Shown here: one piece after another, positions 19,704 to 43,320 of the stretch
Layout: each line of letters starts with the position of its first letter
How positions within the stretch are numbered: the first letter of the stretch is position 1
Origin: a bacterium
Lineage (GTDB): Bacteria; Hinthialibacterota; Hinthialibacteria; Hinthialibacterales; Hinthialibacteraceae
Direction of reading: 5' to 3'
Assembly: GCA_963663405.2 (NCBI GenBank)
Contig: CAXXSM010000092.1
Location: forward strand, 32,001-96,000
DNA: 64,000 nucleotides
Position numbers and translations under genes: made by a program
The notes under the pieces: model-generated
What the model saw: the letters and a program-made list of their open reading frames with translations, nothing else
Databases searched by the model: none
Told to the model about the DNA's origin: nothing

Positions 19704-21017
<1,314 letters not shown>

Positions 21018-22985: not shown

Positions 22986-23010
22986 TTTTTTAATTCCTCC
23001 CGGCTTTTTG

Positions 23011-24290: not shown

Positions 24291-24352
24291 GGATTTAACT
24301 GCATCCTTACTGATGTTTGTACCTAATTTGTACCTAATAAATACAAATCAAT

Positions 24353-24368
24353 AGCATAATTCATTCCA
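24353..24368 (-). promoter_or_regulatory. sigma54 -24/-12 promoter of the ferredoxin-HD-hcp run
   Basis: The minus strand reads TGGAATGAATTATGCT (GG-N10-GC), ~60 bp upstream of the ATG. Confidence 0.7.
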
Positions 24369-24419
24369 ACAATGAAAAAGAGATAAGAATTAACTCTAAT
24401 ATACTTAAAAATAAGAACT

Positions 24420-24432
24420 TAAATATTTGATT
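24420..24432 (-). promoter_or_regulatory. IHF-like site
   Basis: AATCAAATATTTA matches WATCAANNNNTTR and lies between the sigma54 box and the putative UAS. Confidence 0.45.
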
Positions 24433-24584
24433 GGATAAGGAGAAGAAAAAAATTCAAAATACAAGATCAAGACGCTAATAAAACACTGTCAAACGAAATC
24501 TATTTATCCGTCGACTTAGAAAATCGATATAACAATATTTTATTGCGTTAAAAAGGATAGTTTACTCAATGGATGGAAGAATAA

Positions 24585-24638
24585 TGTCTCATTATCAATA
24601 CACACTCATAATGAGACAGATATAATATTAATGAGACA
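24585..24638. promoter_or_regulatory. Putative upstream activator sequence cluster
   Basis: TGTCTCA at 24585 and TGAGACA at 24612 and 24632. The same layout occurs at 38556-38612. Confidence 0.65.
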
Positions 24639-24710
24639 ACCAAAAAGAGAATACTATAGAATCCCGTCCGTTAATAAACAAACCAACCAGATTCCCCTAT
24701 ACTCCAAAGG

Positions 24711-26195
24711 TTATTTCGCATATCGAGATTTAAATTCCTGCTGCCGTCTCAAACGTTCGGCTTTTTCTTCTGGATCCATCTTGTTATTAAACCACTGATG
24801 GTTTTTATGATTGAAGATTTCCTCAATTCGCTTTTCGAGCGCTTTAGCCGCTTCGACTTTTTTCGGATCATCTGAATGAAGCCCCTTTTCAACGAGTTCT
24901 TCCAATTCGGGGATCAATTCCGTGTAGAAGTTCCGGGCGATTTCATAGGTCCCATGCCAGTGGGTAATATCCGGTCCCATCATCGAAGCGCCGTGACGCG
25001 CCCGCCGGCCTTCGTGATGCCACAATTCAAACCAAGTAAAGTCAATTTTATTGGAGAAATTCGCCGGACGCAAAAGCGGGGCGGCCAACTCCATAAGTTC
25101 AATTCCCGGGCTGGCGAATTTCTCATGATAGAGATCGATCAGCCCATCGTATTGCATGTAGAATCCATCCACAAAGTTTCGATTATGGCAATTTAGGCAG
25201 ACATCGATCATATTGTTCCGCCGTGTCTCCCAACCGGTGGAAGCGCCTTTCAATCCCATTTTCAAATCACTGACTTCCGGCCGGATGGAAATAATCGGGC
25301 GGTTATTCCACGAAATCCGCATCCCCACATCATGGCTGACCGGCTGATTTTTTGTGGCCGACATGTGACATGTCGAACATGTCGGCGCCGCTGAATAATC
25401 TTCACCGACCACCCACTTCGCGTTACCCATATTCATTTTCGAATGATGCGCGCGGAATGCCACACCATGTTTAGATTCGTTATAAATCTCAATCTGTGGA
25501 TGGTCCGGCCCCATATGACATTTCCCACAGTTTTCTGGATTGCGCACCTGTTCCACGGAAAATTCATGCCGTGAATGGCAGGCCGTACAAGATCCTTCGC
25601 TTCCATCAGGATTGATTCGCCCGATGCCTGTATTCGGCCAAGTCGCTGGATCCAATTTTCCTCCCAGTAAAACCTTCACCTCACTTCCATGGCATTGCCA
25701 ACACCCATTCACTGCCGCGGCGGAGACGCCCTTTGGAAATCCAACGGTTTTAAGTCCACGATTCCCCTCCACGACTTCAGCCAAGACATTATCAAGCGAT
25801 CCCATAATACGGCCCGCTTTGGCGTGATGAGAATTCGTAAATTCATCCACCTCGCGTTCATGACAACGGGCGCAGTCACGAGGACTTACAATGATCGAGA
25901 TCAATTTCCCGGTTTGAGTCGTTCCATCTTTCAACACAACATCATGTTGAAGCGCATCCGGATCCCCCTCTTCGGCCATATGACACTCATAACAACCAAT
26001 GTTCGCGCGGAAATGTTTGCTGGCGCCCCATTGTTCATACACAGATGGCGTTTCTACTTTATGACAGTCGATACAAACCTTCGATTCAGGAGAGAGCGCC
26101 TTAGGCGAAAACGCCGCATACACTGCCGGATACGATAAAACCGGGAATGCAAGCGCCGCGAAGATTCGAATGAAACATCTTGACGATCGATTCAT
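24711..26195 (-). CDS. Octaheme HAO-family cytochrome c, probably reductive (epsilon-Hao-like)
   Basis: Signal peptide and 8 CxxCH motifs (CIDCH, CYECH, CARCH, CWQCH, CTACH, CGKCH, CSTCH, CLNCH), plus MGPDHPQIEIYNESKHG and GPDITHWHG. Confidence 0.9.
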   Translation of the reverse strand: MNRSSRCFIRIFAALAFPVLSYPAVYAAFSPKALSPESKVCIDCHKVETPSVYEQWGASKHFRANIGCYECHMAEEGDPDALQHDVVLKDGTTQTGKLISIIVSPRDCARCHEREVDEFTNSHHAKAGRIMGSLDNVLAEVVEGNRGLKTVGFPKGVSAAAVNGCWQCHGSEVKVLLGGKLDPATWPNTGIGRINPDGSEGSCTACHSRHEFSVEQVRNPENCGKCHMGPDHPQIEIYNESKHGVAFRAHHSKMNMGNAKWVVGEDYSAAPTCSTCHMSATKNQPVSHDVGMRISWNNRPIISIRPEVSDLKMGLKGASTGWETRRNNMIDVCLNCHNRNFVDGFYMQYDGLIDLYHEKFASPGIELMELAAPLLRPANFSNKIDFTWFELWHHEGRRARHGASMMGPDITHWHGTYEIARNFYTELIPELEELVEKGLHSDDPKKVEAAKALEKRIEEIFNHKNHQWFNNKMDPEEKAERLRRQQEFKSRYAK

Positions 26196-26297
26196 GACTC
26201 AAGGCCTCCGATGTCAGAGTATGGGTACAAAAGATAAAAAAAATCTATGCGCAAAATCAGTAAAACTATTGTCAAAGTAGAAAGACTAACAAATCTT

Positions 26298-27532
26298 TTA
26301 ATCCTCTTTTTTGAACTCACCCGAAACAATAGGAAGCGCCAGCCGCAGCATCCAGCTGAAAAGCAAAATTCCAAACGCCCAGATTCCTATACAAATCTGT
26401 ATTTCATTTAGGGTAGGAACATACTCGACAATTTCCCCTAATGGCGTCGGCAGGAAACCCGGTACAATCATCCCAGGCCCTTTTTCAATCCAGATCCCAA
26501 CGAAAGCGAGAGCACACGCCAGATTCAGCCATCTGATTTGATTGGCTAGAATCGGTGTCACAAGAATCACTGCTGCAATCGTTTCCATGAGCAAGGCGCT
26601 CCAGATCCAAGGCACAAGAGCGTTGTGCCCATGCAAACCGAAGAAAAGATATTGAGCGCTGGAAGAATGCAGCGATGCGCTATAAAACTCTTTAAACGCT
26701 TCGCAGCCTAATAGAAATAGATTGATCAGCAGAGAGATTGTCACGATCTGACGAAGAAGATGCAGCGCTTTGTCGCCGATGTTGTAATTGGATATGCGCC
26801 GGATAATCTGAAACGCGAGAATCATCAATCCCGGACCGGCGGTAAACGCCGAACCGAGAAAACGCGGCGCGACAATCGCGGCGTTCCAAAACGGACGCCC
26901 AACCAATCCAACATAAAGAAACGCAGTAACAGTATGAATGGAGACCGCCCATAGAATCGAAAGAAAGACGAATGGCATATATAACCACGGATTCGGTTTC
27001 CGGCCTAAATAGGTCATATAGAGAAGATAACCGCAAACATGTACGTTTATCAAAAGATAACCGTTCAAAACCACCACATCCCAGCTCAGCATTGAAATCG
27101 GAAAATTGAATAAGCCAATGACAGGAATCATATGCCAAAACCGATCGGGGCGCCCCAAGTCAACGATTACGAATAAAAGACACATAATGATCGCCGCTAC
27201 TGCGAGCAGTTCTCCAAAGATCACAACAGTTATGCATCTCACGAATTCGATAAATATACGCTGGAATAACTAGCATTACAGCCGCGGCCGCCATTCCAAC
27301 GAGAAACGTGAAATTGGCGATGTAGATCCCCCACGAAACCTGATCGGTCATTCCCGTAGTAATCAATCCCCCGGCCAGCTGCGTGCAGTAAGCCCGCAAT
27401 CCAAAGGAACGAGAGAAGGGTCAGAAAAATCATCCACAAAAAGAACGCCCACCCGCCACGGAAACTAAGCCGGGACGCCCGGTAGAGGAAAAGGCTGTAA
27501 TCTTTGATTGCGCCGCTAACTTCACCTGCCAC
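26298..27532 (-). CDS. NrfD/PsrC (DsrP-like) membrane anchor, two frameshifts
   Basis: Three overlapping ORF pieces carry TGMTDQVSWG.YIANFTF, VDLGRPDRFWH and SIHTVTAF. The GTG start at 27532 follows an AAAGGA RBS. Confidence 0.85.
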
Positions 27533-27563
27533 GTCAAATCCTTTATTCCAAAGTCCGATCGTT

Positions 27564-28539
27564 TTAAGCGTCAAACCAATAATAAAAACGGGGGATGGTT
27601 CCCGCATCCTCTTTCAATACATAGACTCTCTTTTCATCCAGGATATAGCGGATAGGACTCTCCGCATCCAATAGATTGCCGAACTGCCGCGCTCCCGTTG
27701 GACACGCTTCCACACATTTTGGGTACCAATCCCCGCCGCACACGTTGCAGACAGAACGTGCATTTCTCCATCGTCCCGCGGGGACGGATTCGATTGCTCA
27801 AATAGGCCATCTCTGGATTGATCTCATCTTCCGGTATAGACGGCTCAGAAAAGTTAAAGCGCCGCGCCCAATAGGGACAAGCCGCTTCACAATAACGGCA
27901 GCCGATACACCAGTTATAATCCACGACGACAATCCCGTCTTTCTCCTTCCACGTAGCGCGAACCGGACAGGCCTTCACACACGGTGGATTGTCACACTGG
28001 TGACATTGAACCGGCATATAGTAAAATCCTTCCGCGTTCACGCTATCCACGCCATAGTAGTGATTCGATTTCTCGACATCGATCGTGCCCTTGGGCATTT
28101 GCAGAACGCGGATGTATTGGATCGCAGGATCGCGCGACTGGTTGTTTTCCTCAACACAGGCGTAGACGCAGCGGCGGCAGCCGACGCACCGGCCGATATT
28201 CAGCGCGTAAGCGAATTGAACACCCGGCGCCGGTTTTGGATCTTCAATGTGAACCTCTTTTCCATGGCGTTCCCGGATCTCTTTTTCCAACCGCTGAAGA
28301 ATCTTCTCCATCGCCTCCGGCGTAAGACGTTCGTATTGCTGTTGCACAAACGCCTCTAAATCCGTGTCGTTATCAAACTGGGTCAGCGGTTCAAGAGCCG
28401 CGCCCAAACCACAGGCGAAAAATGCGCCGAACGAACCGAGTTTGATAAAACTGCGCCGTTCCAAAGACTCCTTCGAGCCGGGGATGTATGATTTTCGATC
28501 CTGTGACTTTGATGGATCGTTCTGTGTTGGATCGTTCAT
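27564..28539 (-). CDS. 4Fe-4S dicluster protein (NrfC/DsrO-like) with twin-arginine-like leader, +1 frameshift near 27718
   Basis: RRSFIK leader and CVGCRRCVYAC, CHQCDNPPCVKACP, CIGCRYCEAACP and CTFC motifs. The corrected tail reads PKCVEACPTGARQFG...YYWFDA*. Confidence 0.88.
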
Positions 28540-29151
28540 CGATGAGATCCTTCCTGCGCATGCCCTCCGGCGCTGGAGGGACCCGGCATAGGTATAAGCG
28601 TTGGAAATGCTGGCGCATGGGGATCATGGCATTGAATACACAGGATTCGGGTTCGTTTTCCCTGCGTCCGATCCCAATACCCCACTCATCCGCCCATGCG
28701 CCCCAGCCTTCCAATCACGGTAAACCAGGCCATGACATTTCGCGCAGAGTTCCGCGGGCCGATCGCTCGGGATTTCCTTTCCATCGTGTGTAATGTACGC
28801 GTCCCGGTTGGCCGCATGGTGGCAGTTCAAACAATAGTCGTTCCGGCCATGATCAAGCCGCAGGTCCACATGTTCCGCCACTAATTTTCGTTGTTCCAAA
28901 GGCGATTGGAACAACCGATGGCATTCATTACAGTGATAAACAAATCCACCCCGCCGCAGCCGAAGCGGTTTCCATTCCCCACGAATGGGCCTGTAATCCA
29001 CTTTGAGAACGATTGATTGAGAAGAAGAAGATTGAAAATCGTCGGTTACAAAAGAAAAGACGGATTGGCTCAAAACGATTACGCCAATAGACACAACTAG
29101 GATGGAAAACCACCGCCGTTTACAAAATACAAAAAGTGAGCGCGTTTCCAT
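28536..29151 (-). CDS. Small tetraheme cytochrome c, +1 frameshift near 28680
   Basis: CNECH, CLNCH and CAKCH, with CIQCH after removing one G from a GGGG run. The corrected stop overlaps the next ATG (ATGA). Confidence 0.85.
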
Positions 29152-29260
29152 CATCTATCCCTTCCCCAAAGGAAAACCGGTAATCATGCGCGCCGCTCGT
29201 AGATTCCTTACGGAGAGTATACACTATTTTGAATGGAATTCTTTTATTGAATTCTTATTT

Positions 29261-29276
29261 TGGTATACTAATACCA
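29261..29276. promoter_or_regulatory. Palindrome in the divergent promoter, candidate Rrf2 operator
   Basis: TGGTAT-acta-ATACCA between the cytochrome operon and rrf2. Confidence 0.45.
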
Positions 29277-29302
29277 CAATACCACTTATCGAGTCAAGCA
29301 AG

Positions 29303-29727
29303 ATGTCAACAATTTTGAATTTTTCTGACGCTGTTTCTCTAGCATTGCATTCTATGGGGATTATGGCGGGAAAAAAGGACTGCTTTTTTCGAACCGGCGC
29401 GATTGCCAAACAACTCGCAGTTTCCGAGCATCATCTTCAAAAAGTCCATCAAAGACTATCGAAAGCCGGATTGCTCCATTCGGCTCGTGGTCCTAAGGGA
29501 GGATTTTCGTTAAACAAACCGGCGGAGGAAATTACCCTTCTTGAAATTGTAGAAGCGATTGAAGGGCCCTTCGATCCCTCACCATGTTTTCTGAACAAAT
29601 CTCCCTGTCCGGACTGTGCATCTTCAAAAATCTAATCGGTCAGGTCAATGATCTGGTCATGGAAAATTTAAAAACCGTCACGATCGACCGACTGGCTGAC
29701 CGAAGTTTTATCATGAAACCTAAATAG
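29303..29727 (+). CDS. Rrf2 family regulator (NsrR/IscR-like), frameshift near 29612
   Basis: SEHHLQKV..L.KAGL..SARGPKGGFSL...EITLLEIVEAIEG and a Cys cluster. The reading continues in another frame to the TAG at 29727. Confidence 0.88.
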
Positions 29728-29736
29728 GAAGGAATA

Positions 29737-30097
29737 ATGTTCTTTTCTTTTCTAATCGATTGGATCCCAAAACTTCAGAGATCTAAACAGAATAAATCGA
29801 AAACCGTCGATAAAGATATCGAGACACTTCGTGTGTTTATTGGAGTCTACTGCCTAAAGAATTCATATAAGCAAGGAAGATAAAGACCTTTGCCCGGATT
29901 GTGAAACACTGTTCCAATACGCCTGCAAACGGAGAGAATTATGCCCATACGATCCCAAACCAGCATGCAAACAATGCAAGACCCATTGCTATAAATCAGA
30001 ATATAGGGAGCAAATTCGGAAGGTGATGAAGTTTTCCGGAATCTATTTCGTCAAGCGGGGCCGCTTGGATTGGTTGATTAGATATTTTCTACGATAA
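29737..30097 (+). CDS. YgbA-like (nitrous oxide-stimulated promoter family) protein, +1 frameshift near 29862, absent from the ORF track
   Basis: Corrected translation YCLKNH...LCPDCETLFQYACKRRELCPYDPKPACKQCKTHCYK...IRKVMKFSG. The span is 361 nt. Confidence 0.85.
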
Positions 30098-30133
30098 AAG
30101 CCATACGAATAACACTATTGCGTATGCGCGCAA

Positions 30134-31154
30134 TCAGTAACTATCATCCGTCAATTCAACTTTACCCACGAATACGGAATAAACATATGCGGTATATGCG
30201 AGAACAAGCGGCACACCGATCAGCGCGATGATGAACATCACCCATAAAGTAAGTGGCGAGGAAGAAGCGTTGTAAGCGGTTAGGCTGTAGTTTAAATCAA
30301 TGCTGGAAGGGAGCATACGGGGATACAAAGGCTGACACCGGCGATCCCAATCACCGAGAGAATCACAGCCGAGGAAGAAAGGAAAGTACGCAGATGCAGT
30401 CCCGCTTTCCTCGCTATTGGAAGATAGACCAAACTGGCAATCAATACTAAAAAGAACAACCAGAAAAGGGGCTTGACTAGTAGACCTTCAAAAAGATATG
30501 GAGAAACAAAAAAGGCTGAGACCGTCGCGACCACGTAAAGCGAAACAAACGCGATCCCATGCGTTGTCAACCCACCATTCCATCCGTTTCTGCAGATCCC
30601 CTTCCGTTTTCACCGTCATATAGGCCGCGCCCTGCATCACGATCAGAACTAAACTGAGAACGCCGCATAAAAGCGCAAAGGGATTCAGAAGAGAGAGAAA
30701 TGGAACGTAAAGAACACCCTCCGCGTCAATAGGAACTCCTCGAAGAACATTGCCAACCGCCACACCATAGAGAACCGCGGGAATTAAGCTCCCCAATCCA
30801 AACGCCATTCCCCATAAAACCCGCCATGAGGAATTATTAACTTTACCGTAAAATTCAAGCGACACCGCCCGGACAATCAACGCGAAGAGCAAAAGCATAA
30901 ACGCGAGATAAAATCCGCTGAACGCGGTCGCATACACAATAGGGAATGCGGCGAATAACGCCGCCGCCGCCGGTAAGCAGCCAAACTTCGTTACCATCCC
31001 AAACGGGGCCGATGGCGTTTATATGGATGCGCCGTTCTCGATTTCCGTGAGCGAAAAGGCTGAGCGCGCCAACCCCTAGATCAAAACCATCGAGAATCGC
31101 GTAACCGGTGATTAACACACCGATCAAGAGGTACCAGATCGTATTTAAATCCAT
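30134..31154 (-). CDS. cydB: Cytochrome bd oxidase subunit II, three frameshifts
   Basis: YAILDGFDLGVG, IGPVWDGNEVWL, AAFP.VYATAFSGFY and SLTAYNASSS, spread over four ORF pieces. Confidence 0.9.
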
Positions 31155-32494
31155 TATGACTGCGCCTCCTTTTCAACTAAAGGTTCGGGGCCATGCTTGA
31201 TCTTTCGAATGAGGACAAAAATATACAACGCGCCAATCATCGTATAAATCAATCCAAACAGGATCAAAGAAAACAACACTTCCACAGCGCTGACCTGAAA
31301 GGAATACGCGTCCGCGGTCTTCAACAGCCGGTAAACTACCCAGGGCTGGCGCCCCACTTCGGCGACGATCCAGCCCAATTCGCAGGCGATCAGTGGCAAC
31401 GGGATCGCGAAGGGTAATAAACTGAGATACCAACGGGTGTCAGAGAGTCGTTTCCGGTAAAGCAGAAAAACGCCGAACGCCGTCAGAGCGATGAATAACA
31501 TGCCTAATCCCACCATGGTATGGAAGGAGATGAACATTAATGAGAACGGCGGCGTCGCCCAGCCCTCTTTCCGGAGATCCTCAACTCCAGGCACGTTGGC
31601 GCTGGAATCACCAAACGCGAACCAACTTAACAAACCTGGGATTACAATCGCATAATTCAATCGAGGCGGACTGTCAGAGGGGATTCCAAACACCGCCAAC
31701 GGGGCATTCGGCCCTCCCTCGCTGAGTCCCTCCATAGCGGCGAACTTTTCGGGCTGCGTACGGGCGACTTGCTTGGCGTGAAAATCCCCCGTCGGAATGA
31801 AAGTGAGGATCGATGCGATCAAACCAACGACCAGCGCGAGTTTCAACGTCTTGCGGGAGGATTCCGGACTGATATTTTTCAGCACATGATACGCCGAGAT
31901 TCCCGCCATCAAGAACGCGCCCGCGGTCAAACACGCCGCCAGGGTATGAGAAAACCGGTAGATTGTCGATGGATTAAACAATACTGCGAAGAAATCGGTC
32001 ATTTCCGCGCGCCCATTGCGGATAACATACCCCGCCGGGGTCTGTTGCCAGGAATTGGCGGCGATAATCCAAAACGCCGAGAGCGTCGCCCCAACAGCGA
32101 CCATCAATGAAGAAAACCAATGTACTCCTTTTGAGACACGCCCACGGCCAAAGAGATATAATCCTAAAAACGTTGATTCCAAGAAGAAGGAGAACAAGGC
32201 TTCCGCCGCTAATGGCGCTCCAAAAATATCGCCTACATATTTGGAATACTCCGCCCAGTTCGTCCCGAACTGAAACTCCATCACAATGCCTGACGCCACA
32301 CCGGCGGCGAAGGTCAGTCCTAACACTTTCGCAAAGAACTTCCCCGCCCGGACGTAGTCCATATCATTCCGTTTCCAGCCCATCCACTCCACGCCTACAA
32401 GCAGCCACGCCAATCCAATGGAGAGCGGTGGGAAAAGGAAATGGAATCCAACGGTAAAGGCGAATTGGAGTCTTGATAGAAACAATGTATCCAT
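31154..32494 (-). CDS. cydA: Cytochrome bd oxidase subunit I
   Basis: SRLQFAFT..FHFLFP, EFQFGTNW, QPEKFAAMEG and GWIVAEVGRQPW. Confidence 0.97.
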   Translation of the reverse strand: MDTLFLSRLQFAFTVGFHFLFPPLSIGLAWLLVGVEWMGWKRNDMDYVRAGKFFAKVLGLTFAAGVASGIVMEFQFGTNWAEYSKYVGDIFGAPLAAEALFSFFLESTFLGLYLFGRGRVSKGVHWFSSLMVAVGATLSAFWIIAANSWQQTPAGYVIRNGRAEMTDFFAVLFNPSTIYRFSHTLAACLTAGAFLMAGISAYHVLKNISPESSRKTLKLALVVGLIASILTFIPTGDFHAKQVARTQPEKFAAMEGLSEGGPNAPLAVFGIPSDSPPRLNYAIVIPGLLSWFAFGDSSANVPGVEDLRKEGWATPPFSLMFISFHTMVGLGMLFIALTAFGVFLLYRKRLSDTRWYLSLLPFAIPLPLIACELGWIVAEVGRQPWVVYRLLKTADAYSFQVSAVEVLFSLILFGLIYTMIGALYIFVLIRKIKHGPEPLVEKEAQS

Positions 32495-32552
32495 TGCTTG
32501 TTCTCCCCTAACTGTTGTTCATACTGATTATTCAATCCACTTTCAATGGAAA

Positions 32553-33068
32553 TTACGTCGAGGCGGCGTTCGATGGTGGATTGAATGACCGTTGGCTCAA
32601 CTGCTGATCGATCATGAAAATCCCAGGGCCATCGCCTTTGATTAATTTCAGTTTCTGAACGATGCCGTCCGCCGTGGCTTCTTCTTCGACCTGCTCATTA
32701 ACGAACCACTGCAGGAAAGCGTTGGTGGCGTGATCGCTCTCTTGCAAGGAGAGATCCACTAACTTGTTAATTAATTCCGTCACATGTTGTTCGTGCGCAT
32801 AGGCGGCTTCAAACGCCGCCAGGGGAGATTCCCATTCGATTTGAGGCGCTTCGATCGCTGTTAAAATCACCCGGCCACCACGTTCGACTATGTAATCATT
32901 AAACATCGCCGCGTGCGCTAACTCTTCCTGTGTTTGAATTTTCATCCAATTCGCCATCCCTTCCAGATTGATGGAATGAAAATAGGCTGACATGGAATAA
33001 TATAAATACGAGGAATAGAATTCGGCGTTAAGATGCTTGTTTAACGCTTCTTCGATTGTCTTTTTCAT
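32553..33068 (-). CDS. ftnA: Non-heme ferritin
   Basis: EFYSSYLYYSM, QEELAHA and FLQWFVNEQVEEE. Confidence 0.95.
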   Translation of the reverse strand: MKKTIEEALNKHLNAEFYSSYLYYSMSAYFHSINLEGMANWMKIQTQEELAHAAMFNDYIVERGGRVILTAIEAPQIEWESPLAAFEAAYAHEQHVTELINKLVDLSLQESDHATNAFLQWFVNEQVEEEATADGIVQKLKLIKGDGPGIFMIDQQLSQRSFNPPSNAAST

Positions 33069-33251
33069 GATGCTCTCCTTCTTTCATTGTTAACATAAGA
33101 TTGATGAAAACAATCCAACTGCGCATTCTTATAAATACTGTTATCCACTCAGTATATCCACTTGAATTCCCGCTGTAGGATAAATTCATACTAAGGAAGT
33201 TTTTCCGCCATTATTTAATAAGGTTAATAGAGCAGCGTTATCCTACCAGAT

Positions 33252-34076
33252 CTATCCCAGCGCCACATCGAGCGCCATCATGATGGCGAATCCACCAATC
33301 GTGCTGATCGTAGCAAAATCCGTATACTCATCCCGCTGGGATTCTGGAATCAGTTCTTCTACGACAACAAAAATCATGGCGCCGGCGGCGAATGCGAGTC
33401 CATAGGGAAGTAAAGCCCGCATCGAAAGCACCATCCAAGCCCCTAACACACCGGCGATTGGTTCAACAATCCCGGAAGCCTGTCCATAGACAAAGGCCTT
33501 AAACCGCCCCATGCCCTCACGACGCAGCGGCATGGAAACAGCCAATCCTTCTGGAAAGTTCTGCAATCCGATCCCTATGCCTAAGGCGATGCCCCCCATA
33601 ATCATGGAGTGCGCCTGCGCCGCGTCAACCGCATGGGCGACCATTCCAAACGCGACGCCCACAGCCAATCCTTCAGGGATGTTGTGCAATGTGATCGCGG
33701 AGATAAGCAATACACTACGTTTCCAGGATGTTTGCAGTCCCTCCGCTTGGGAAATATCCAATCCCAGGTGCAAATGGGGGAGGATCTTATCCACGATATA
33801 GAGAAAGAACCCACCAGCGAGGAAGCCGATTAAAGCCGGTTTCCAATCACCGTTCGACATTTCAATTGCGGGGGCAAGCAATGACCAAAAACTGGCGGCG
33901 ATCATTACCCCCGCCGCCATTCCGAGCATTCCATCCAGCAGTTTTTGATTGAATCGTTTCGTAAAAAATACTAAGGACGCGCCGAGAGCTGTCACGAACC
34001 ATGTAAATAACGTGGCGATTAACGCCTGCGTTATAGGACTATATTGTTGAAAAAAATTAAATAGACCTTCATTCAT
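33252..34076 (-). CDS. ZIP family metal transporter (GufA/ZupT-like)
   Basis: [20 protein letters not shown] and [16 protein letters not shown]. Confidence 0.93.
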
Positions 34077-34145
34077 GATTCCCTCTATAATCTCTTGCAA
34101 GCTCTCCTCGCATGAGCTGGTAAAAACAAATCACGCCAATACCAC

Positions 34146-34207
34146 AAAAAATAGACATAAGCGATGGCCGCAACTCCGATCAACCAGGCGCCGGCCATCG
34201 CTATGAC
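34146..34207 (-). terminator. Likely intrinsic terminator after rubredoxin
   Basis: GCGATGGCCG...CGGCCATCGC stem with a long loop, followed by a T run on the minus strand. Confidence 0.5.
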
Positions 34208-34230
34208 CGTTGCTTGTTCTTACGGCAATC

Positions 34231-34395
34231 CTATTCTTCTTCAGGTGAAAAATCGTCTTTACTCACGTCGCATTCCGGGCAGGTAAAATCATCCGGTAGA
34301 TCTTCAAATGGAGTGCCAGGTTCAATCCCTTGTTCCGGCAATCCTACTTCAGGATCATAAACCCATCCACAGACATCACAGACGTATCGTTTCAT
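34231..34395 (-). CDS. Rubredoxin
   Basis: [15 protein letters not shown]...[13 protein letters not shown], with a GGAG RBS. Confidence 0.95.
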
Positions 34396-34433
34396 CGTTT
34401 CTCCTCCATATTCATCTAAAGATGGCATGTCTT

Positions 34434-35633
34434 TTAGTTTGCATGGTTATTGGCTAATTCAAGAGCTTTTTCGGCGAGTTGTTTTCCCGCCGCGCGGCAC
34501 TCATCCAAGATTTCAGGGGTGGGTTTGAATTGAGAGGAAATCGTATCACGCACAATCTCCCAATCCAGGGCCTTCATATAATCGACCAGGTTCCGCATTC
34601 CCCCTTGGCTCCAACCATAAGAACCGAATGCGAAACCGGCTTTCCCGGAGGGTCTCAATCCCTTCAGGTAGATCAACGTAGCGCCGATCATCGGCATCAT
34701 CTCCCGGTTGAGGATCGACGAACCGATAGCGACACCGGCGGCGTCGAGCATATCCGTCGCGATCCGTGTTAAATTCGATAGGCGGACATGAATCAGATCC
34801 GTTTCGACGCCGGGAATGGAAGCGCCTTCCAAAATCGCTTTAGCCATCTCGCCGGTGCTGTTCCACATGGTGTCATAGATGACCAACACTTTCGGTTTGG
34901 GCTTGTGAACGATCCATCCTTTATAGGCTTCTATAATCTTGTCAATATTCGAACGGAACACCAAGCCATGACTGGGCGCGATCATATCGATGTCGAGTTT
35001 CGCCACTTCGTCCATCGTCGCCGCAATGAATTTACCATACGGCATAAGAATGTTCGCGTAGTACGTTTTGGCTTCTTCCATTAGCGCTTGGAAGGACACT
35101 TCATCATCGAAGCGCCGGATCGTGGCGTAATGCTGTCCGAACGCGTCCATCGAAAAGAGCAGTTTCTCTTCGGGAATATACGTAAACATCGATTCGGGCC
35201 AGTGCACCATGGGCGTTTCAATGAACTGTAGCGTCCACTTACCCAGGGAGAGCGTATCGCCTGTCTTGACGATATGGAAATTCCAGCCGGATGTATCATA
35301 ATGTTTGCCTAATGCCGCTTCACATTTTTTCGTGCAAACAAGCGTCGCATTCGGACATTCTTTTATGACACGCGGCAAACCACCGGAATGATCCGGTTCG
35401 GCGTGGTTGCAGATAATATAACGAATCGACTTCATATCGGTCAGCGTGGTCACCTTCTGGATTAGATCATTCACAAAAGGCGCTTTAACAGTGTCGATTA
35501 GAGCCGTTTTCTCATCGCGTACGAGATAGGCGTTATACGTGGCGCCGCGATCGGTGTTATAACTGTGAAAATCGCGGACGGTCCAATCGACATAGCCAAC
35601 CCAATCAATGTTCTCCCGTAAGACTATACTCAT
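34434..35633 (-). CDS. fprA: Flavodiiron protein (O2/NO reductase)
   Basis: [29 protein letters not shown] and a flavodoxin domain (AFGSYGWS). Confidence 0.95.
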
Positions 35634-35742
35634 GATGCTCCTTCCAACGCGCTATCGCTATCGACCGCTCCAGAGCAACCGGTCCGGAGCGAGTTCTCTT
35701 TCGGTGTTTGCGCAAAACGGACTCCGTTCGCACACAATACAA

Positions 35743-36318
35743 TTACCAGTTCTCCGCCAGCACCTCGAAATGCGCTTGCGGATGCGCGCACGCAGGACAC
35801 GCTTTCGGCGCTTCCTCGCCTTCATGAAGGTATCCACAGTTTCTGCATCTCCAAACAATCGGCTTCTCTTTCTTGAACACGGTTCCGGATTCAATATTCT
35901 TCATCAAATCAAGATACCGCTTCTCATGTTGTTTTTCCGCGACGCAAACAGCGTCAAACACGGCGGCGATCGCGGTGAATCCTTCTTCTCGAGCGACCTG
36001 AGCGTATCCTGGATACATCGTCGTCCATTCGTAATTCTCTCCACCCGCCGCCGCTTTCAGATTTTCCACTGTCGCGCCAATCACACCTGCGGGGAACGCC
36101 TCTTGGATCTCCACTTCCCCGCCTTCCAGAAACTTAAAGAACCGTTTCGCGTGTTCTTTCTCTTGATTGGCGGTCTCTTCAAAGATGTCCGCAATCTGAA
36201 CGAATCCCTCTTTTCGAGCGACACTTGAATAATAGGTATATCGGTTTCTTGCCTGAGATTCACCTGCAAACGCTGTAAGCAGATTTTTCTCCGTTTTACT
36301 TCCTTTAATGCTGGCCAT
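35743..36318 (-). CDS. rbr: Rubrerythrin
   Basis: AFAGESQARNRY, EKEHA, EKQHE and CRNCGY...CPACAHP. Confidence 0.97.
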   Translation of the reverse strand: MASIKGSKTEKNLLTAFAGESQARNRYTYYSSVARKEGFVQIADIFEETANQEKEHAKRFFKFLEGGEVEIQEAFPAGVIGATVENLKAAAGGENYEWTTMYPGYAQVAREEGFTAIAAVFDAVCVAEKQHEKRYLDLMKNIESGTVFKKEKPIVWRCRNCGYLHEGEEAPKACPACAHPQAHFEVLAENW

Positions 36319-36384
36319 TCCTTACGTTCTCCTTTTCTCCAAAAAAAGTAATCATTAAATACTGTGCAATACTTTACATTCACG

Positions 36385-36765
36385 CTATTTCGCTTTCCAT
36401 AACCCATGAAGGTTGCAGTACTCGCGCGCCGTGAGTCGCTCCCCTTCCACGGGGAAAAACGCTTCCGGCGCGTCGCCTGGATTCAAAAACTGACGGTACG
36501 CTTTTCCATCCGCGATCAGTTCGATCCATTCGATATAATGTTCATCCTGCATTGGATGCGCGACGGACCCAACCTTCACTTTGACGCCTCCGCTTACTTT
36601 CTCAATTACGGGAACGTGTTTTTCTGTCGCCGCGTCAGTGGTGTTCTCTGTCAGCAGATCCATCGGCTGATTGCAACAGACAAGCTGGCCTCCTCCTTCA
36701 TGAATCACTTCAACCATATTACCACAGACACTACATTTGTACACTTGCAGCTTTTGAGTCGCCAT
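36385..36765 (-). CDS. dfx: Desulfoferrodoxin (superoxide reductase)
   Basis: YKCSVCGN...CCNQPM, EKHVP, HPM...HYIEWI and YCNLHGLW. Confidence 0.96.
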
Positions 36766-36818
36766 TTTTACTCTCCTTAAACAGATCGTATCGTTCAATC
36801 AATAAACAGAGACACAGT

Positions 36819-37259
36819 TTATCCGTATGGATACATGTCTTTCTTTACCGCCTCTAAATTGGCGAGCACTTCATTGTGTTTTTCTTCATCTTTCAAAAGA
36901 TATTCAATCAGATACTTTTGCACGGTCATTCCCTTGTTACCTTTGAGCGCGGCGAGACTTTCTTCGGCCAACCGGACCGTCTCTTTTTCCAATTCGATAT
37001 GTTTCTCGATAGAAGCCCATACTTTGCCAACTTCCTCTGGCGTAAGAGTGAGAACTTTGCTTTCCAGGCTGTCAATAATTAATTCTTGCACACGATGATG
37101 CATTTGGGAATCACGCTGAATGATTTCCATCACTAACCGGACAACTGGGTTTTCGGTCTCTTCAATAATTCTCCCTGTGGAAGAGACTGAAGCGTTTTCA
37201 ATCTTCTGCCATTTCTTCATGTTTTTTACGACGGCTTCCTGCGCTTCTTTAGCGTTCAT
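36819..37259 (-). CDS. Uncharacterised ferritin-like four-helix protein
   Basis: Helical protein with an internal repeat ending DSQMH / DEEKH and an AGGAG RBS. Confidence 0.7.
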   Translation of the reverse strand: MNAKEAQEAVVKNMKKWQKIENASVSSTGRIIEETENPVVRLVMEIIQRDSQMHHRVQELIIDSLESKVLTLTPEEVGKVWASIEKHIELEKETVRLAEESLAALKGNKGMTVQKYLIEYLLKDEEKHNEVLANLEAVKKDMYPYG

Positions 37260-37362
37260 AATTATCTCCTTCTCCTTGAATATAGGTCTGTCACTCATTC
37301 TTTATTTGTTATCAGAAAACAAAATACGTATAAATGGCCCTCTTCACAAGGGGGAAATCGTT

Positions 37363-37950
37363 TTATCCATGTTTGGCCAGGTAATCAGCGACGCCATCCG
37401 CTGTGGGTTTCATCCCTTCTTCACCTTCCCGCCAATTCGCCGGACAGACTTCCCCATGTTTTTCCGTAAATTGCAAAGCGTCCACAACACGCAAGGCTTC
37501 ATCCACACTGCGGCCCAGTGGGAGATCATTGACCAACGCGTGACGCACAATTCCTTCTTTATCGATCAAGAACAGACCACGCAGCGCTAATGAATTATTG
37601 AACAATATACCATATTTCTCCGCAATACTCCGATCCAAATCCGAAACCAAAGGATATTGGATGTTCCCGATTCCACCTTTGTCCCGTGGCGTGTTCTTCC
37701 AGGCCAGATGGGTAAAATGAGAATCCACCGATACCCCGATCACTTCGGTTTTTCTCTTCTTGAATTGATCAAGAGATTTATCAAACGCAATAATCTCGGA
37801 CGGACAGACAAACGTAAAATCGAGCGGGTAAAAGAACAAAACGACATACTTCCCACGGTACGAGGACAACGTTAGTTCTTCAAATGAATTGTCTGGCGCG
37901 ACAGCTTGAGCGGTGAAATCTGGGGCTTCTTTCGTTACGAGTGTTGACAT
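37363..37950 (-). CDS. ahpC: 2-Cys peroxiredoxin (AhpC/TSA)
   Basis: FFYPLDFTFVCP and GEVCPANW. Confidence 0.95.
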   Translation of the reverse strand: MSTLVTKEAPDFTAQAVAPDNSFEELTLSSYRGKYVVLFFYPLDFTFVCPSEIIAFDKSLDQFKKRKTEVIGVSVDSHFTHLAWKNTPRDKGGIGNIQYPLVSDLDRSIAEKYGILFNNSLALRGLFLIDKEGIVRHALVNDLPLGRSVDEALRVVDALQFTEKHGEVCPANWREGEEGMKPTADGVADYLAKHG

Positions 37951-38017
37951 GATTTACTCCTTCTTTTTTATACTAGGCTTTACGCCTTTATTAATGTTCG
38001 GATGTAGTGAAATCACT

Positions 38018-38272
38018 TCACGAATCCGGTTGGTTCTCACTATCCATAGCGCTTTCTTCCCAAATTCCATTCGTGATATGAACCTGCTTTTCTCTCTCGG
38101 CTTCCGAACGAATTTTAAAAGCGCAATCGCGAACCACCTCAAAAAGCGCAAGACACCCTTCATCATCAATCTGAGTTCGCGCATCATTGGCGGAGACGAT
38201 CATCAAACGAGATATATCCAACGCCTGTTTGATGTATTGATTGGTAATACTGACATGTTGGTTGGTCTTCAT
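38018..38272 (-). CDS. Small Cys-containing helical protein, paralog B
   Basis: DDEGCLALFEVVRDCAFKIRSEAERE...GIWE. The start is placed downstream of the sigma54 box. Confidence 0.85.
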   Translation of the reverse strand: MKTNQHVSITNQYIKQALDISRLMIVSANDARTQIDDEGCLALFEVVRDCAFKIRSEAEREKQVHITNGIWEESAMDSENQPDS

Positions 38273-38314
38273 TGGAACACACAATCTTCTATTTTGGTAC
38301 GTTTGATTAAGAAA

Positions 38315-38330
38315 AGCATAAACCATGCCA
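38315..38330 (-). promoter_or_regulatory. sigma54 -24/-12 promoter of the oxidative-stress run
   Basis: The minus strand reads TGGCATGGTTTATGCT (GG-N10-GC). Confidence 0.8.
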
Positions 38331-38523
38331 CAATCAAAATCGTAATCATACAATTAAATATCTTACTGATTATGTTAAACTTAGAGAAAATATTCAGAGT
38401 GAGATTCAATTCATCCGGCGGTATTGTTATGTCTCATTAAATTTAATTTTTAGATACAAACCGAATCCATATTCCAAGACAAATAAGAAGAGCCGAAAGA
38501 GGAAACAAAAATATCTTAAATAA

Positions 38524-38612
38524 TATCAATTAGTTAAGAAAGAAATTTGATGATATGTCTCATTAATTACTACTATACTTTCCCATTGAGACACATCATC
38601 TGAACTGAGACA
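38524..38612. promoter_or_regulatory. IHF-like site plus putative UAS cluster
   Basis: TATCAATTAGTTA at 38524. TGTCTCA at 38556 (also at 38430) and TGAGACA at 38587 and 38606. Confidence 0.65.
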
Positions 38613-38989
38613 CTCTCTTTCACTATAGAAGGGCTAGTGTAATGAATCGATAAATACTTTCTATTCATATATATAGGTGTGTATCATTTCAAACGCGCTC
38701 CTGGCGCCAACACCAAATCGTACTACCTTTGAAGACTGATTCCGTGTGTTTATTAATTAATGGAATTTTCTTAATAGAAAATTATCAAAAAACAATAAAC
38801 CATTTGACTTTCACTCTTTTTTATAGAATAATCGATTTAAATTCCATCGTTTTTATATGCAGCGCCTCAATTCACTGCGATATGACGAGTGAAGATTATT
38901 CTTCATTCCGTCCACTAAATTTGGGCTATTTAATCCAGATGGATCAGATGGGGGAGACCATAAACTACATATTTGAAAGGATTGAGACA

Positions 38990-40393: not shown

Positions 40394-40659
40394 AAGGATC
40401 AAAACACCTACCCGCGATAGGTAATGGAACACGAGTGTCTCGCTCGTGAATCGTAGAACATCAATTTAATCTTACACAGCCCCCCAAACCAACAACACCA
40501 ATCCTTATCCCTGATATCACACTAACCTTTATAGTAAGCAGAATGTCTTACTGCAATTCCTATCCAAGATTCAATATATAAAAAAAGAAAGGCATTTCTC
40601 ACCCTCTCCAATATTAAATTCAGCCTCAGCCACTACAAAAAATCTCCATAAGTCATACT

Positions 40660-41868
40660 ATGTATAAAACAAATCATTATAAGGATACCAAGCGCCATTA
40701 CGCTGGATCATTCATAAGGAAACTCATGTCTCCAAAGTCTCTCCGTTCCATCACAAATGAGATCGACGATTATGCGATTCTCACCGCGATTGGTGAAGGA
40801 TCGAGAGACGTAATCACCAGCATCGACGCAAAAGGACGTATCCTATCCTGGACATCCGCCGCCGAACGGCTTCTCGGCTATACAGACAATGAAATCATCG
40901 GTCAATCGATCGATATCCTCGTCCCAGAAAATCTACGGGAATACGAACATGAACAGGTTCGAAAACAGATCAACGGTGAGATCGGCGTCTTTCACGAAGA
41001 CACTATCCGGCTTTGCAAATCGGGTGAACCGGTGGAAATCAGTCTTACACGGATTCCCTTGAAAAACCGGCAGGGAAAAAATATCGCTTTGCTCGCCATT
41101 TTAAAAGATGTGTCGGAACAGAAAAAACTACAACAAGAGGTGGATACCCTCCAGCGCAACACGGCGATGGCGAAAGTCGCCGCGAAAGTCGCCCATGAAA
41201 TCCGAACCCCTCTTGGCGTTCTATTCTTAAAATCCGACCTCCTTGTCGAACGGCTGCGAAGGGCGTTTGAAGAATGGGGAACGGGTGATTCGGAAAAACA
41301 TCAAAAAATACTTGAAAAAGGCGTTTCAGATATTCAAAAGCAGATCAACCGATTAGAAGAAATCGCCACGAATTACCTTCATCTTTCAAAAACCGGTACC
41401 ATTGAACGTGTCAATTTAAAACTCCGGCTTTTCATGCGGGACGTCGTATCGGAACTCAAGGAACAATACGATGACCGGATACAATTGGAATATGAAGTGC
41501 AGGATAACCTCCCCGCAGCATGCTTGGACGCTCAGCAATTCCAGCGAGTTTTCTCCAATTTGACACGCAATTCCGTGGAGGCCATCCGATTGGCCCATAT
41601 CCCTAATGGGAAAATTCTCTTCCGCGTCTATCAAGAAGGAGAAACCATTCGATTTGAAGTCAAAGACAACGGACCGGGTATTCCTAAAGAAATCCAACAA
41701 GCCGTTTTCGATCCATTCACTACTTCAAAAAGCATCGGAACCGGTTTGGGATTATATCTAGTCCGGGAGATTGTAGAAAACCATGATGGCTCTATCCATA
41801 TTCAATCTGAAGAAGGGAAAGGAACCACGATCCATATTACCATTCCATTGGAGAGGGACGGCGGCTGA
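40660..41868 (+). CDS. Cytoplasmic PAS-domain histidine kinase
   Basis: PAS/PAC domain, AHEIRTPL H-box, and DNGPGI / GTGLGL boxes. No TM segment. Confidence 0.93.
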   Translation: MYKTNHYKDTKRHYAGSFIRKLMSPKSLRSITNEIDDYAILTAIGEGSRDVITSIDAKGRILSWTSAAERLLGYTDNEIIGQSIDILVPENLREYEHEQVRKQINGEIGVFHEDTIRLCKSGEPVEISLTRIPLKNRQGKNIALLAILKDVSEQKKLQQEVDTLQRNTAMAKVAAKVAHEIRTPLGVLFLKSDLLVERLRRAFEEWGTGDSEKHQKILEKGVSDIQKQINRLEEIATNYLHLSKTGTIERVNLKLRLFMRDVVSELKEQYDDRIQLEYEVQDNLPAACLDAQQFQRVFSNLTRNSVEAIRLAHIPNGKILFRVYQEGETIRFEVKDNGPGIPKEIQQAVFDPFTTSKSIGTGLGLYLVREIVENHDGSIHIQSEEGKGTTIHITIPLERDGG

Positions 41869-43262
41869 TGACGAGACGCGCTCTATTAATTGTTGAAGAC
41901 GACGCCGACTCACGTGAAGCGATCTGCGAATCCCTTGAGACTGAAGGCTATCAATTTTTGGAGGCGGAAACAGGGGAAAAAGCGATTGAAATGTTCGCAA
42001 CATGCGACATCGACGTAGTCACATGCGATATCATGCTTCCGGGAATGAATGGCATCGAAGTCCTCAGGAAGATCAAGGAGATCAAACCCAACACCCAGGT
42101 TGTCATTCTGACTGGTTTAAGCGAAGTCGATACCGCTGTCGAAGCCATGCGGCTGGGCGCCTTCCACTATCTGACCAAACCTATCCGCCAAAAGGAACTT
42201 CGGCTTGTAATCGAGCGCGCGATCGAACAGAGGAAAATGGAAGAAGAGCGGGAGGAGTGGCGCCGTCAAGTCGCCCGGTATTCCGGAAGGCTTCTCGGCA
42301 AATCGACCGCTATGCAGAAAATCTTTCACATCATTGAACAGGTCGCTCCCACCCAAAGCACTGTCCTCATCACAGGAGAAACCGGCACCGGCAAAGATCA
42401 AGTCGCCCGCGAAATCCACGAACAAAGCCGCCGCAGCAACAAACCCTTAATCAAAGTCGACTGCGCGTCTCTGCCCGAATCCCTGCTGGAATCGGAATTG
42501 TTCGGTCACATCCGGGGCTCGTTCACCGGGGCGATCAAAGACCGCAAAGGCCGTTTCGAACTGGCGGACGGCGCGACGATCTTCCTGGATGAGATCGGAG
42601 AAATGTCCGCCAGCGCCCAACAACGCTTGTTGCGCGTCTTGCAGGACTCGGAACTGGAACGAGTTGGCAGCAGCGATACCATCCGGGTCGACGTTCGTGT
42701 GATCGCGGCGACAAATAAAGACTTGGTCCAATCCATCGCGGATAAGAAATTCCGGGAAGACCTTTACTACCGGCTGCGGGTCGTCCAGGTCCAACTTCCC
42801 CCTCTTCGCGATCGTGGAAACGATATTCCAATATTGGCACAGTCGTTTCTAGAACGGTACAGTAATGAGACAGGAAAGGATCTGAAAACATTCTCACAGG
42901 AAGCGATTAACTTCTTGAAGTCCTACTCCTGGCCGGGTAATGTGCGTGAATTACAGCATGCCGTCGAACACGCTTCCATCTTCGCTCAACCTCCAAATGT
43001 AACCTTGGAAGATCTTCCTGATGAGATTAAAGCCGGTTCTTCCCCTATCGTTTACATGGAGGCGGAAGTGAAAACCTCCATCGTTCCAGATGACAAAACT
43101 ATAGTTATATCAGTAGGTTGCACACTTGAAAAAGCTGAATTGGAAATTATCCGTAAAACACTTGCCAGCGTAGGAGGCAATAAAGAGGAAGCCGCGCGCG
43201 TCCTGGGGCTTTCCCGCAGTTCGCTCTACCGCCGATTGCCCAAGCTGGCTGGAATCCCTTGA
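41868..43262 (+). CDS. NtrC-family sigma54 response regulator
   Basis: Receiver domain, GETGTGKD, ESELFGH..GSFTGA, FREDLYYRL, WPGNVREL and a Fis-type HTH. Confidence 0.96.
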   Translation: MTRRALLIVEDDADSREAICESLETEGYQFLEAETGEKAIEMFATCDIDVVTCDIMLPGMNGIEVLRKIKEIKPNTQVVILTGLSEVDTAVEAMRLGAFHYLTKPIRQKELRLVIERAIEQRKMEEEREEWRRQVARYSGRLLGKSTAMQKIFHIIEQVAPTQSTVLITGETGTGKDQVAREIHEQSRRSNKPLIKVDCASLPESLLESELFGHIRGSFTGAIKDRKGRFELADGATIFLDEIGEMSASAQQRLLRVLQDSELERVGSSDTIRVDVRVIAATNKDLVQSIADKKFREDLYYRLRVVQVQLPPLRDRGNDIPILAQSFLERYSNETGKDLKTFSQEAINFLKSYSWPGNVRELQHAVEHASIFAQPPNVTLEDLPDEIKAGSSPIVYMEAEVKTSIVPDDKTIVISVGCTLEKAELEIIRKTLASVGGNKEEAARVLGLSRSSLYRRLPKLAGIP

Positions 43263-43304
43263 GACGGATATGATTTAATGAAAACATAATTAAATCTGGA
43301 TGAT

Positions 43305-43320
43305 TGGCATACAATATGCT
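43305..43320 (+). promoter_or_regulatory. sigma54 -24/-12 promoter
   Basis: TGGCATACAATATGCT (GG-N10-GC) upstream of the single-domain receiver gene. Confidence 0.7.

Follow-up and report, generated by a model that had tools for sequence, protein, structure and literature searches.

The stretch of DNA analyzed here (the window, 64,000 nucleotides) comes from a bacterium of the family Hinthialibacteraceae and corresponds to positions 32001-96000 of contig C92 in its genome assembly (G000; 8.44 Mb in 170 contigs, 82% complete). It carries two operons for nitrosative and oxidative defense, both of which lie behind a predicted sigma-54 promoter and an upstream cluster of the 7-mer TGTCTCA. We describe this shared control region and the enhancer-binding protein (EBP) that may act on it. 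Protein domains were called with Pfam and NCBIfam, and 19 sister genomes of the same family (including G002, G004, G007, G010, G011, and G014) served for comparison. Operon 1 (21342..24290, minus strand) encodes a 4Fe-4S protein (23508-24290), an HD-domain protein (23011-23508), and Hcp (21342-23018), with Pfam matches to Fer4, HD, and Prismane (1.4e-173). Operon 2, also on the minus strand, has its core at 34434..38272. According to Pfam and open reading frame (ORF) positions, this core encodes an 84-amino acid (aa) Cys protein (38018-38272), AhpC/Prx (37363-37950), a 159-aa protein (36819-37298), desulfoferrodoxin (Dfx; 36385-36798), rubrerythrin (Rbr; 35743-36318), and a flavodiiron protein (FDP; 34434-35633). 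Genes for a ZIP transporter, ferritin, and cytochrome bd (30488..34100, minus strand) follow downstream in the same direction after gaps of 334 and 184 bp, and may or may not be co-transcribed with the core.

The pattern TGGMAT-N4-TATGCT occurs exactly three times in the window, at 24353-24368(-), 38315-38330(-), and 43305-43320(+). The expectation from shuffled sequence is 0.01, and none of 100 shuffles reached three matches; the three boxes listed in an earlier note on this DNA are thus exact and far above chance. All of them have the GG-N10-GC spacing of sigma-54 promoters, for which the -24/-12 consensus is TGGCAC-N5-TTGCW-like, and the extended box pattern has only 6 matches in 8.4 Mb. 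Each box is followed, after about 30-65 nt, by a start codon in the same orientation (the ATGs of the Fer4 gene at 24290, the small ORF at 38272, and a receiver gene at 43358). Box 1 (TGGAATGAATTATGCT; 24353..24368, minus strand) lies about 63 nt ahead of the first ATG of the Fer4-HD-Hcp operon and is its predicted promoter; box 2 (TGGCATGGTTTATGCT; 38315..38330, minus strand) is that of the oxygen-defense operon. Scans for the sigma-70 promoter consensus (28 matches versus 28.1 in shuffles) and for terminators (28 versus 22.3) gave counts equal to those in shuffled sequence, so that operon ends cannot be defined from them.

The 7-mer TGTCTCA, counted on both strands, was found 16 times in the window, compared with 5.75 expected (0 of 100 shuffles reached 16). 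We defined an inverted pair as TGTCTCA-N10-30-TGAGACA and a cluster as at least three 7-mers with gaps of at most 70. The upstream activating sequence (UAS) of operon 1 (cluster 1, 24585..24638) holds 7-mers at 24585, 24612, and 24632, that is, 217-264 bp upstream of box 1; read on the operon strand, each site extends to TGTCTCATTA. Enhancer 2 (38430..38612; 100-276 bp upstream of box 2) consists of three distal 7-mers (38556, 38587, and 38606) and a proximal one (38430-38436). Measured from the 5′ edge of the box, the nearest 7-mer of the triple cluster lies at 217 bp (box 1) and 226 bp (box 2), with offsets of +27/+47 and +31/+50 for the other two, exactly as previously noted. The proximal site, 100 bp from box 2, had been overlooked; it aligns with a TGTCTCA-N16-TGAGACA dyad in G010 and G011. 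In number and placement, the sites of both enhancers fit the range typical of a bacterial EBP, about 80-300 bp upstream of the -24/-12 box. This anatomy of promoter and enhancer can be read directly from the DNA, and boxes 1 and 2 resemble genuine sigma-54 promoters with one common enhancer motif.

The earlier note had also placed an integration host factor (IHF) site between enhancer and promoter of both operons. Matches to the IHF consensus, WATCAANNNNTTR, do exist at both: one at 24420..24432 (minus strand) between UAS 1 and box 1, about 52 bp from the -24 element, and one at 38524..38536 (plus strand) next to UAS 2, about 194 bp from the -24 element. Since the two matches differ in position and strand, the DNA is AT-rich, and the window contains 5 matches versus 3.4 expected, they are weak evidence for IHF as a part of the shared layout. 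Nine genes of the HU/IHF family were found in G000. Duplication as the origin of the two promoter regions found no support, as their alignment showed motifs and AT-richness only.

Among the 19 sister genomes, close AhpC orthologues (85-87% identical) were found only in G010 and G011. There, the gene order is small ORF, AhpC, 159-aa ORF, Dfx, Rbr, ZIP, ferritin, and CydAB, and the products are 73-87% identical to those of operon 2 (45-47% for the small ORF). The promoters of both operons retain TGTCTCA sites and a TGGCAC-N5-ATGCA box (TGGCACAATTCATGCA in G010 and TGGCACAGTTTATGCA in G011), and in G010 the sites include a perfect TGTCTCATTAA-N8-TTAATGAGACA dyad. The arrangement of TGTCTCA sites, -24/-12 box, and a small ORF with DDGC and RDC motifs at the head of oxygen-defense genes is thus common to the window (38018-38612), G010, and G011. 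DDGC and RDC motifs are conserved across the 50 distinct homologues that make up the family of the 84-aa ORF. This ORF matches no Pfam or NCBIfam family, and its product might be a feedback partner of the activator. As a separate observation, this protein of about 80 aa (38018-38272, minus strand; LADxGEA...DDGC...RDCAYKIR..AERE) is encoded by the first gene behind enhancer and promoter in several phyla. For the 159-aa ORF, no NCBIfam family was found, and Pfam returned only a sub-threshold rubrerythrin match (E 0.009). Further downstream (30292-31154, minus strand), the cytochrome bd subunit II gene appears to be broken into three overlapping ORFs (99, 169, and 92 aa), and the Pfam match, in the middle ORF, covers profile positions 61-199 of 302 only. 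This suggests frameshifts, either real or due to errors in a low-coverage assembly.

In G010 and G011, the gene that ends 20-30 nt before the first 7-mer, directly upstream of the ahpC-dfx-rbr operon, encodes a 587-aa protein with LMWPc, PAS, Sigma54_activat, and HTH_8 domains (the gene is truncated at the contig start in G011). The N-terminal domain of the G010 protein matches the thioredoxin-type arsenate reductase model at 1.8e-39, a score below the cut-off of that model. The cysteines of its PAS domain are arranged as C-x8-C-x3-C-x2-C, of which the first three match the spacing of C52/C61/C65 in the activator OrpR. With the G010 activator as query, 67 loci were retrieved from species-representative genomes and 58 from metagenome contigs, with members from Lentisphaerota, Kiritimatiellia, Verrucomicrobiota, Sumerlaeota, Desulfobacterota, and unclassified metagenome-assembled genomes. 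The AAA+ domain of the family carries GAFTGA, and the helix GVSRATLYRFL of the helix-turn-helix (HTH) domain is nearly invariant across phyla. One of the metagenome members (L128, on a contig of 7373 bp) has a truncated gene with 82% identity to the G010 activator and represents the closest relative outside G010/G011; as its flanks match no G000 contig, it is not attributable to G000. No description of this family or of a TGTCTCA enhancer was found by full-text literature searches or by term searches in the main texts of PMC4641369 and PMC12316311.

The 7-mer is tied to this EBP family well beyond the two sister genomes. Of the 52 genome loci in which the gene is complete and followed by 300 nt or more of sequence, 25 have an exact 7-mer within about 250-260 nt after the stop codon, and the fraction is 50 of 84 when genome and metagenome loci are combined and duplicates removed. 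The density of 7-mers after the activator stop codon amounts to 2.74 per kb versus 0.097 per kb elsewhere in the loci, a 28-fold enrichment. When 73 loci with at least 1.5 kb downstream were scored for oxygen-defense genes (small ORF, Dfx, ferritin-like, FDP, Rbr, or AhpC), 39 had motif and genes, 3 the motif only, 6 the genes only, and 25 neither. The last group indicates that about one third of family members are encoded away from an oxygen-defense operon, as must hold in G000. When 76 sites were aligned, their flanks revealed no clear dyad partner, which makes the 7-mer resemble a half-site at variable spacing; the variant TGTATCA was common by eye.

Genome-wide, G000 contains 649 copies of the 7-mer. 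Random placement predicts 0.02 clusters and 3.5 adjacent pairs, whereas 4 clusters in all and 21 adjacent pairs were found. It is conceivable that the repeats are bound by a protein other than an EBP, for instance a nucleoid protein or a repressor, or that they are what remains of a mobile repeat; either way, the link to -24/-12 boxes would be indirect. The lack of a dyad partner would suit this explanation, and so would the cluster at C138:1449-1488. This member of the four is a 12-bp tandem repeat with four copies of the 7-mer, located in the coding region for the signal peptide of a periplasmic binding protein; it is probably a false positive of the motif scan and not an enhancer. What speaks against the explanation is the position of the enrichment: in several phyla, it lies right behind the stop codon of genes of a single EBP family, with a -24/-12 box and the small ORF next. 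In addition, 3 of the 185 sigma-54-like boxes in G000 have at least two 7-mers 60-400 bp upstream, whereas we estimate about 0.06 for random placement. We consider binding by a non-EBP highly improbable.

The third box belongs to a cassette on the plus strand, which encodes a soluble PAS histidine kinase (40660-41868; Pfam), an NtrC-type REC-AAA+-HTH activator (41868-43262; Pfam), and a single-domain response regulator (43358-43767; Pfam and NCBIfam). A gene for a KamA-family radical SAM aminomutase-like protein (43940-45079; Pfam and NCBIfam) comes next. Box 3 (TGGCATACAATATGCT; 43305..43320, plus strand) is found 43 nt past the activator stop codon and is the predicted promoter of the receiver gene; receiver and radical SAM genes are its probable targets. 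Orthologues of the NtrC-type activator (71-76% identical) are present in 18 of 19 family genomes. The order kinase-activator-receiver is kept in all 18 relatives, with the radical SAM gene next in the 4 loci where this flank is covered. A strict TGGCAY-N5-NTGCW box between the activator and receiver genes was found in 17 of 19 loci, which marks box 3 as the conserved promoter of the cassette itself. No TGTCTCA cluster lies upstream of box 3, and visual inspection of the 3′ part of the activator gene, where coding conservation masks any signal, revealed no distinct UAS. Most likely, box 3 would be driven by the NtrC-type protein of its own cassette. As a side observation, the NtrC-type gene is tandemly duplicated in one relative (L022, G014:C144), with copies 75% and 67% identical to the window protein.

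Taken together, we assign a probability of roughly 0.6 to the reading that boxes 1 and 2 define one redox-stress regulon, with TGTCTCA as half-site of its enhancer, bound by a one-component ArsC-like/PAS EBP of an undescribed family. The activator would combine an ArsC/LMW-phosphatase-like thiol domain (LMW, low-molecular-weight), a PAS domain with OrpR-type C-x8-C-x3-C cysteines, a GAFTGA-containing AAA+ domain, and an HTH domain with the helix GVSRATLYRFL. Under oxidant or redox stress, the sensor domains might release the AAA+ ring, which would assemble on the clustered TGTCTCA sites. Looping through AT-rich DNA, possibly bent by IHF, may then bring the ring to the -24/-12 promoter, where it would open the sigma-54 complex. 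The idea of the earlier note that nitrosative- and oxidative-defense operons share a sigma-54 box and an enhancer motif was right in outline.

Several observations weigh against this reading. No orthologue of the activator was found in the G000 assembly by a genome search or by tblastn with the whole protein, its N-terminal part, its C-terminal part, or the PAS-AAA+ core (best matches 40-48% identical). Neither an LMWPc-PAS match nor a GVSRATLYRFL helix occurs among the assembled G000 EBPs, and the HTH nearest to the family helix is that of the window's NtrC-type protein (47% over 36 residues). Three OrpR-like EBPs of G000 (on contigs C34, C25, and C122) fall outside the family clade, which unites all 87 family rows (SH-aLRT 89) in a quick IQ-TREE analysis of the PAS-AAA+ core (90 rows, without duplicates and without high-scoring segment pairs that begin beyond core residue 20). 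Attempts to extend contig C74 past its terminal 7-mer cluster failed, with 0 exact matches in metagenome contigs. In the family at large, 34 of 84 loci have no exact 7-mer after the gene, and the sensing step is deduced from domain content only. Finally, in 5 of 18 relatives the 700 bp upstream of the kinase gene contain single 7-mers, 6 in total, where we would expect about 1 from background density.

The last point bears on the proposal of the earlier note, in which the neighboring PAS kinase phosphorylates the NtrC-type activator, which in turn binds TGTCTCA and co-activates both operons. In G000, the NtrC-type protein could have replaced a lost one-component activator. Indeed, no EBP gene of G000 is closer to a TGTCTCA cluster than the NtrC-type gene (3.2 kb from UAS 2), whose product also has the best assembled match to the family helix in a genome where the cognate gene was not found. 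Comparison within the family points the other way. Within 4-20 kb around each of the 18 orthologous cassettes, neither an ahpC nor an hcp operon nor a 7-mer cluster was found. The C-terminal helix of the NtrC-type protein (GNKEEAARVLGLSRSSLYRRLPKL) is essentially invariant in the 18 relatives, and its DNA specificity should therefore be shared among them; yet inverted 7-mer pairs number 6 in G000, 1 each in G010, G011, and G007, and 0 in the other 16 sister genomes (a reversed control pattern gave 0 in G000 and 1 in G007). Both proteins occur in G010 and G011, where the motif adjoins the ArsC-like/PAS EBP, not the kinase cassette. The 7-mers near kinase genes are unpaired and inconsistently placed, and none occurs in G000. 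A common target near the kinase genes was also sought and rejected: of the sigma-54-like boxes at L031 and L026, one stands before an OmpA/Pal-like gene, and no ORF follows the other. The NtrC-type protein is hence not a likely binder of TGTCTCA, and we regard its role as activator of both operons as unlikely, and its takeover of the sites in G000 as decidedly so.

Another of the roughly 30 assembled G000 EBPs could bind the sites, for example the OrpR-like PAS protein encoded at the end of C34. The assembly has 36 Sigma54_activat matches, and the genes on C34 and C25 encode PAS domains with C-x8-C-x3-C. The C34 gene is cut by the contig end, which leaves its HTH outside the assembly. However, C34 orthologues (65-80% identical) occur in 11 relatives, 10 of which have no 7-mer pair, and the four orthologues that were read have a different helix, GIHPSTLFRKI. 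Since the C34, C25, and C122 proteins lie outside the family clade and no assembled EBP has the family helix, we consider this explanation very unlikely. Contig C140 carries a further EBP gene, which is broken and has a different HTH.

For the ArsC-like/PAS activator as binder, the most economical reading is that its gene lies in the missing 18% of the G000 assembly, a placement we find rather probable; in about one third of family loci the activator is likewise not beside an oxygen-defense operon. The 82% complete assembly also yielded no match to the rpoN domains PF04552 and PF04963, although PF04552, the DNA-binding domain, is present in 19 of 19 relatives, which indicates that the assembly misses genes that the organism must have. 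Contigs of four sequencing runs at C74 (depth about 2, last ~200 bases uncovered, no loose ends) are evidence neither way.

The two operons differ in the history of their control. Motif conservation in orthologous promoters, which the earlier note had set as a check, holds for the ahpC operon in G010 and G011 but not for hcp. The three-gene order Fer4-HD-Hcp is found in both genomes, where a CRP/FNR-family gene and TTGACTTAAGTCAA or TTGACTTAGGTCAA lie ahead of it; the box reads TTGACTTA(A/G)GTCAA, i.e. TTGAC-N4-GTCAA, and no sigma-54 box precedes the hcp operon in either. Conversely, G000 has no HcpR orthologue in its assembly (best match 25% identity, E 7e-4) and no TTGAC-N4-GTCAA box on contig C92. 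The predicted sigma-54/TGTCTCA control of hcp is thus lineage-specific; by sequence comparison, the hcp operon is rewired in G000, HcpR/FNR-type control being lost and the enhancer-promoter module present. In G004, G002, and G007, an Rrf2 gene precedes hcp (L046, L053, and L054). Within one family, hcp accordingly stands behind Rrf2 (three genera), behind an HcpR-like gene with TTGAC-N4-GTCAA (two; loci L039 in G011 and L041 in G010), or behind the sigma-54/TGTCTCA module (window 24291-24710). The neighboring interval of the window (24711-29635) contains an operon for a multiheme cytochrome, an NrfD-like protein, a 4Fe-4S (NrfC-like) protein, and a small cytochrome, together with a divergent Rrf2-family gene. 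It sits between the cytochrome bd genes and the hcp enhancer; in G011, the corresponding interval holds hcpR.

The earlier note had counted Cys/Met synthesis among the functions of the regulon, a proposal that found no support. The gene concerned, for an O-acetylhomoserine sulfhydrylase / homocysteine synthase (19704..21005, minus strand; Pfam Cys_Met_Meta_PP; NCBIfam homocysteine synthase, 733 bits with a cut-off of 726), follows hcp after a gap of 337 bp, and in G010 it lies on the opposite strand, away from the hcp operon.

Besides operons 1 and 2, at least two further G000 operons carry the enhancer-promoter module. At C21:134779-134807 (locus to 139222, L192), a perfect inverted repeat with 12-bp arms contains the 7-mers, and a TGGCTTATATATTGCT box follows 242 bp downstream; behind it are a DUF6916 gene, two phage-tail-collar genes, and a GEVED-domain gene. 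At C87:11738 and C87:11861-11889 (locus to 16284, L193), TGTCTCA sites are followed about 100 bp downstream by TGGAATGGATCATGCG and then by a 170-aa ORF and a gene for a 1137-aa beta-helix protein. Both operons encode secreted proteins and have sigma-54-like boxes with TGTCTCA inverted repeats ahead. A triple cluster at C74:34925-34979, 84 bp from the contig end, was also found. On the other strand of this contig, a gene for a 494-aa sigma-70-family sigma factor with regions 1.2, 2, 3, and 4 (32857-34404, L194) lies behind a TGGTATACCTCTTGCT box, with a single TGAGACA 150 bp upstream of the box and the triple cluster 520-575 bp upstream. This arrangement could constitute a sigma cascade. With 6 inverted pairs in G000 versus 1 each in G010 and G011 (the single pair of G011 lying elsewhere in its genome), the motif has spread in G000.

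These patterns allow a broader, tentative interpretation, to which we give slightly less than even odds. TGTCTCA may be the DNA code of an undescribed multi-phylum activator with an ArsC-type thiol switch and an OrpR-type Fe-S PAS sensor, a master switch of oxygen defense in numerous uncultured anaerobes of the PVC group, Sumerlaeota, and Desulfobacterota. In the G000 lineage, its regulon would have grown from one operon to a global one by capturing hcp (displacing HcpR), the C21 and C87 secreted-protein operons, and possibly the C74 sigma-factor gene. Oxygen and nitric oxide (NO) defense in anaerobes is usually ascribed to PerR, OxyR, HcpR, and NsrR acting on sigma-70 promoters. A simple, searchable 7-mer in a sigma-54 enhancer module marks such defense genes in several poorly known phyla, and the window shows regulatory turnover of the hcp operon, by genus, within one bacterial family. 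With a purified protein, a defined site, and a defined promoter available, an unstudied redox-sensing activator becomes directly testable. The locus is also a cautionary case, as the regulator gene nearest to the operons is not the one favored by comparative evidence.

Set against known systems, the arrangement represents EBP/sigma-54 stress control in a variant form, in which hcp has been captured specifically in this lineage. HcpR, of the CRP/FNR family, has the same Fer4-HD-Hcp target in G010 and G011, in place of which G000 has a sigma-54 box and TGTCTCA. NorR of E. coli and its relatives is an NO-sensing EBP with iron in its GAF domain, which acts with sigma-54 on nitrosative-stress genes including a flavodiiron NO reductase; it uses three enhancer sites and IHF, with the site GT-N7-AC. 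Scores against the NCBIfam NorR model remained below the cut-off of 476 bits, with 312 bits for the G010 activator and 360 bits for the NtrC-type protein. PexR of Myxococcus xanthus is an EBP that activates the peroxiredoxin gene ahpC, katB, and other peroxide-defense genes in a sigma-54-dependent manner; it resembles the present system in its three upstream dyad sites and in a regulator gene that usually lies beside the target, and it differs in sensing H2O2 by a metal-binding GAF domain and in its sites, CACCG-N6-CGGTG (PMC12754779). No GAF domain was found by Pfam in the G010 activator or in the NtrC-type protein of the window, and the target set in G000 is anaerobe-like (Dfx, Rbr, FDP, and Hcp). 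PexR and NorR thus provide precedents for sigma-54-driven oxidant and NO defense, while sensor architecture and site differ here.

To our knowledge, OrpR is the only studied relative of the activator's PAS domain. This protein (DVU2106 of Desulfovibrio vulgaris Hildenborough) is a PAS-[4Fe-4S] sigma-54 activator, for which the source names C52, C61, and C65 as Fe-S ligands (PMC8359166). Like the G010 activator, it is a one-component EBP whose PAS cysteines follow C-x8-C-x3-C (the G010 protein has a fourth Cys), and the promoters on which OrpR acts together with sigma-54 and IHF adjoin its own gene (PMC8359166). In contrast, OrpR as portrayed there is without an ArsC/LMW-phosphatase-like N-terminal domain, binds GGGCGYRTTTTGCGCCC rather than TGTCTCA, and has a regulon of two orp (cell-division) operons (PMC8359166). 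For the ArsC-like/PAS family, an Fe-S cluster would be a prediction from Cys spacing. Moreover, OrpR is reported to be active when reduced (PMC8359166), whereas an oxygen-defense regulon would be expected to switch on when its activator is oxidized.

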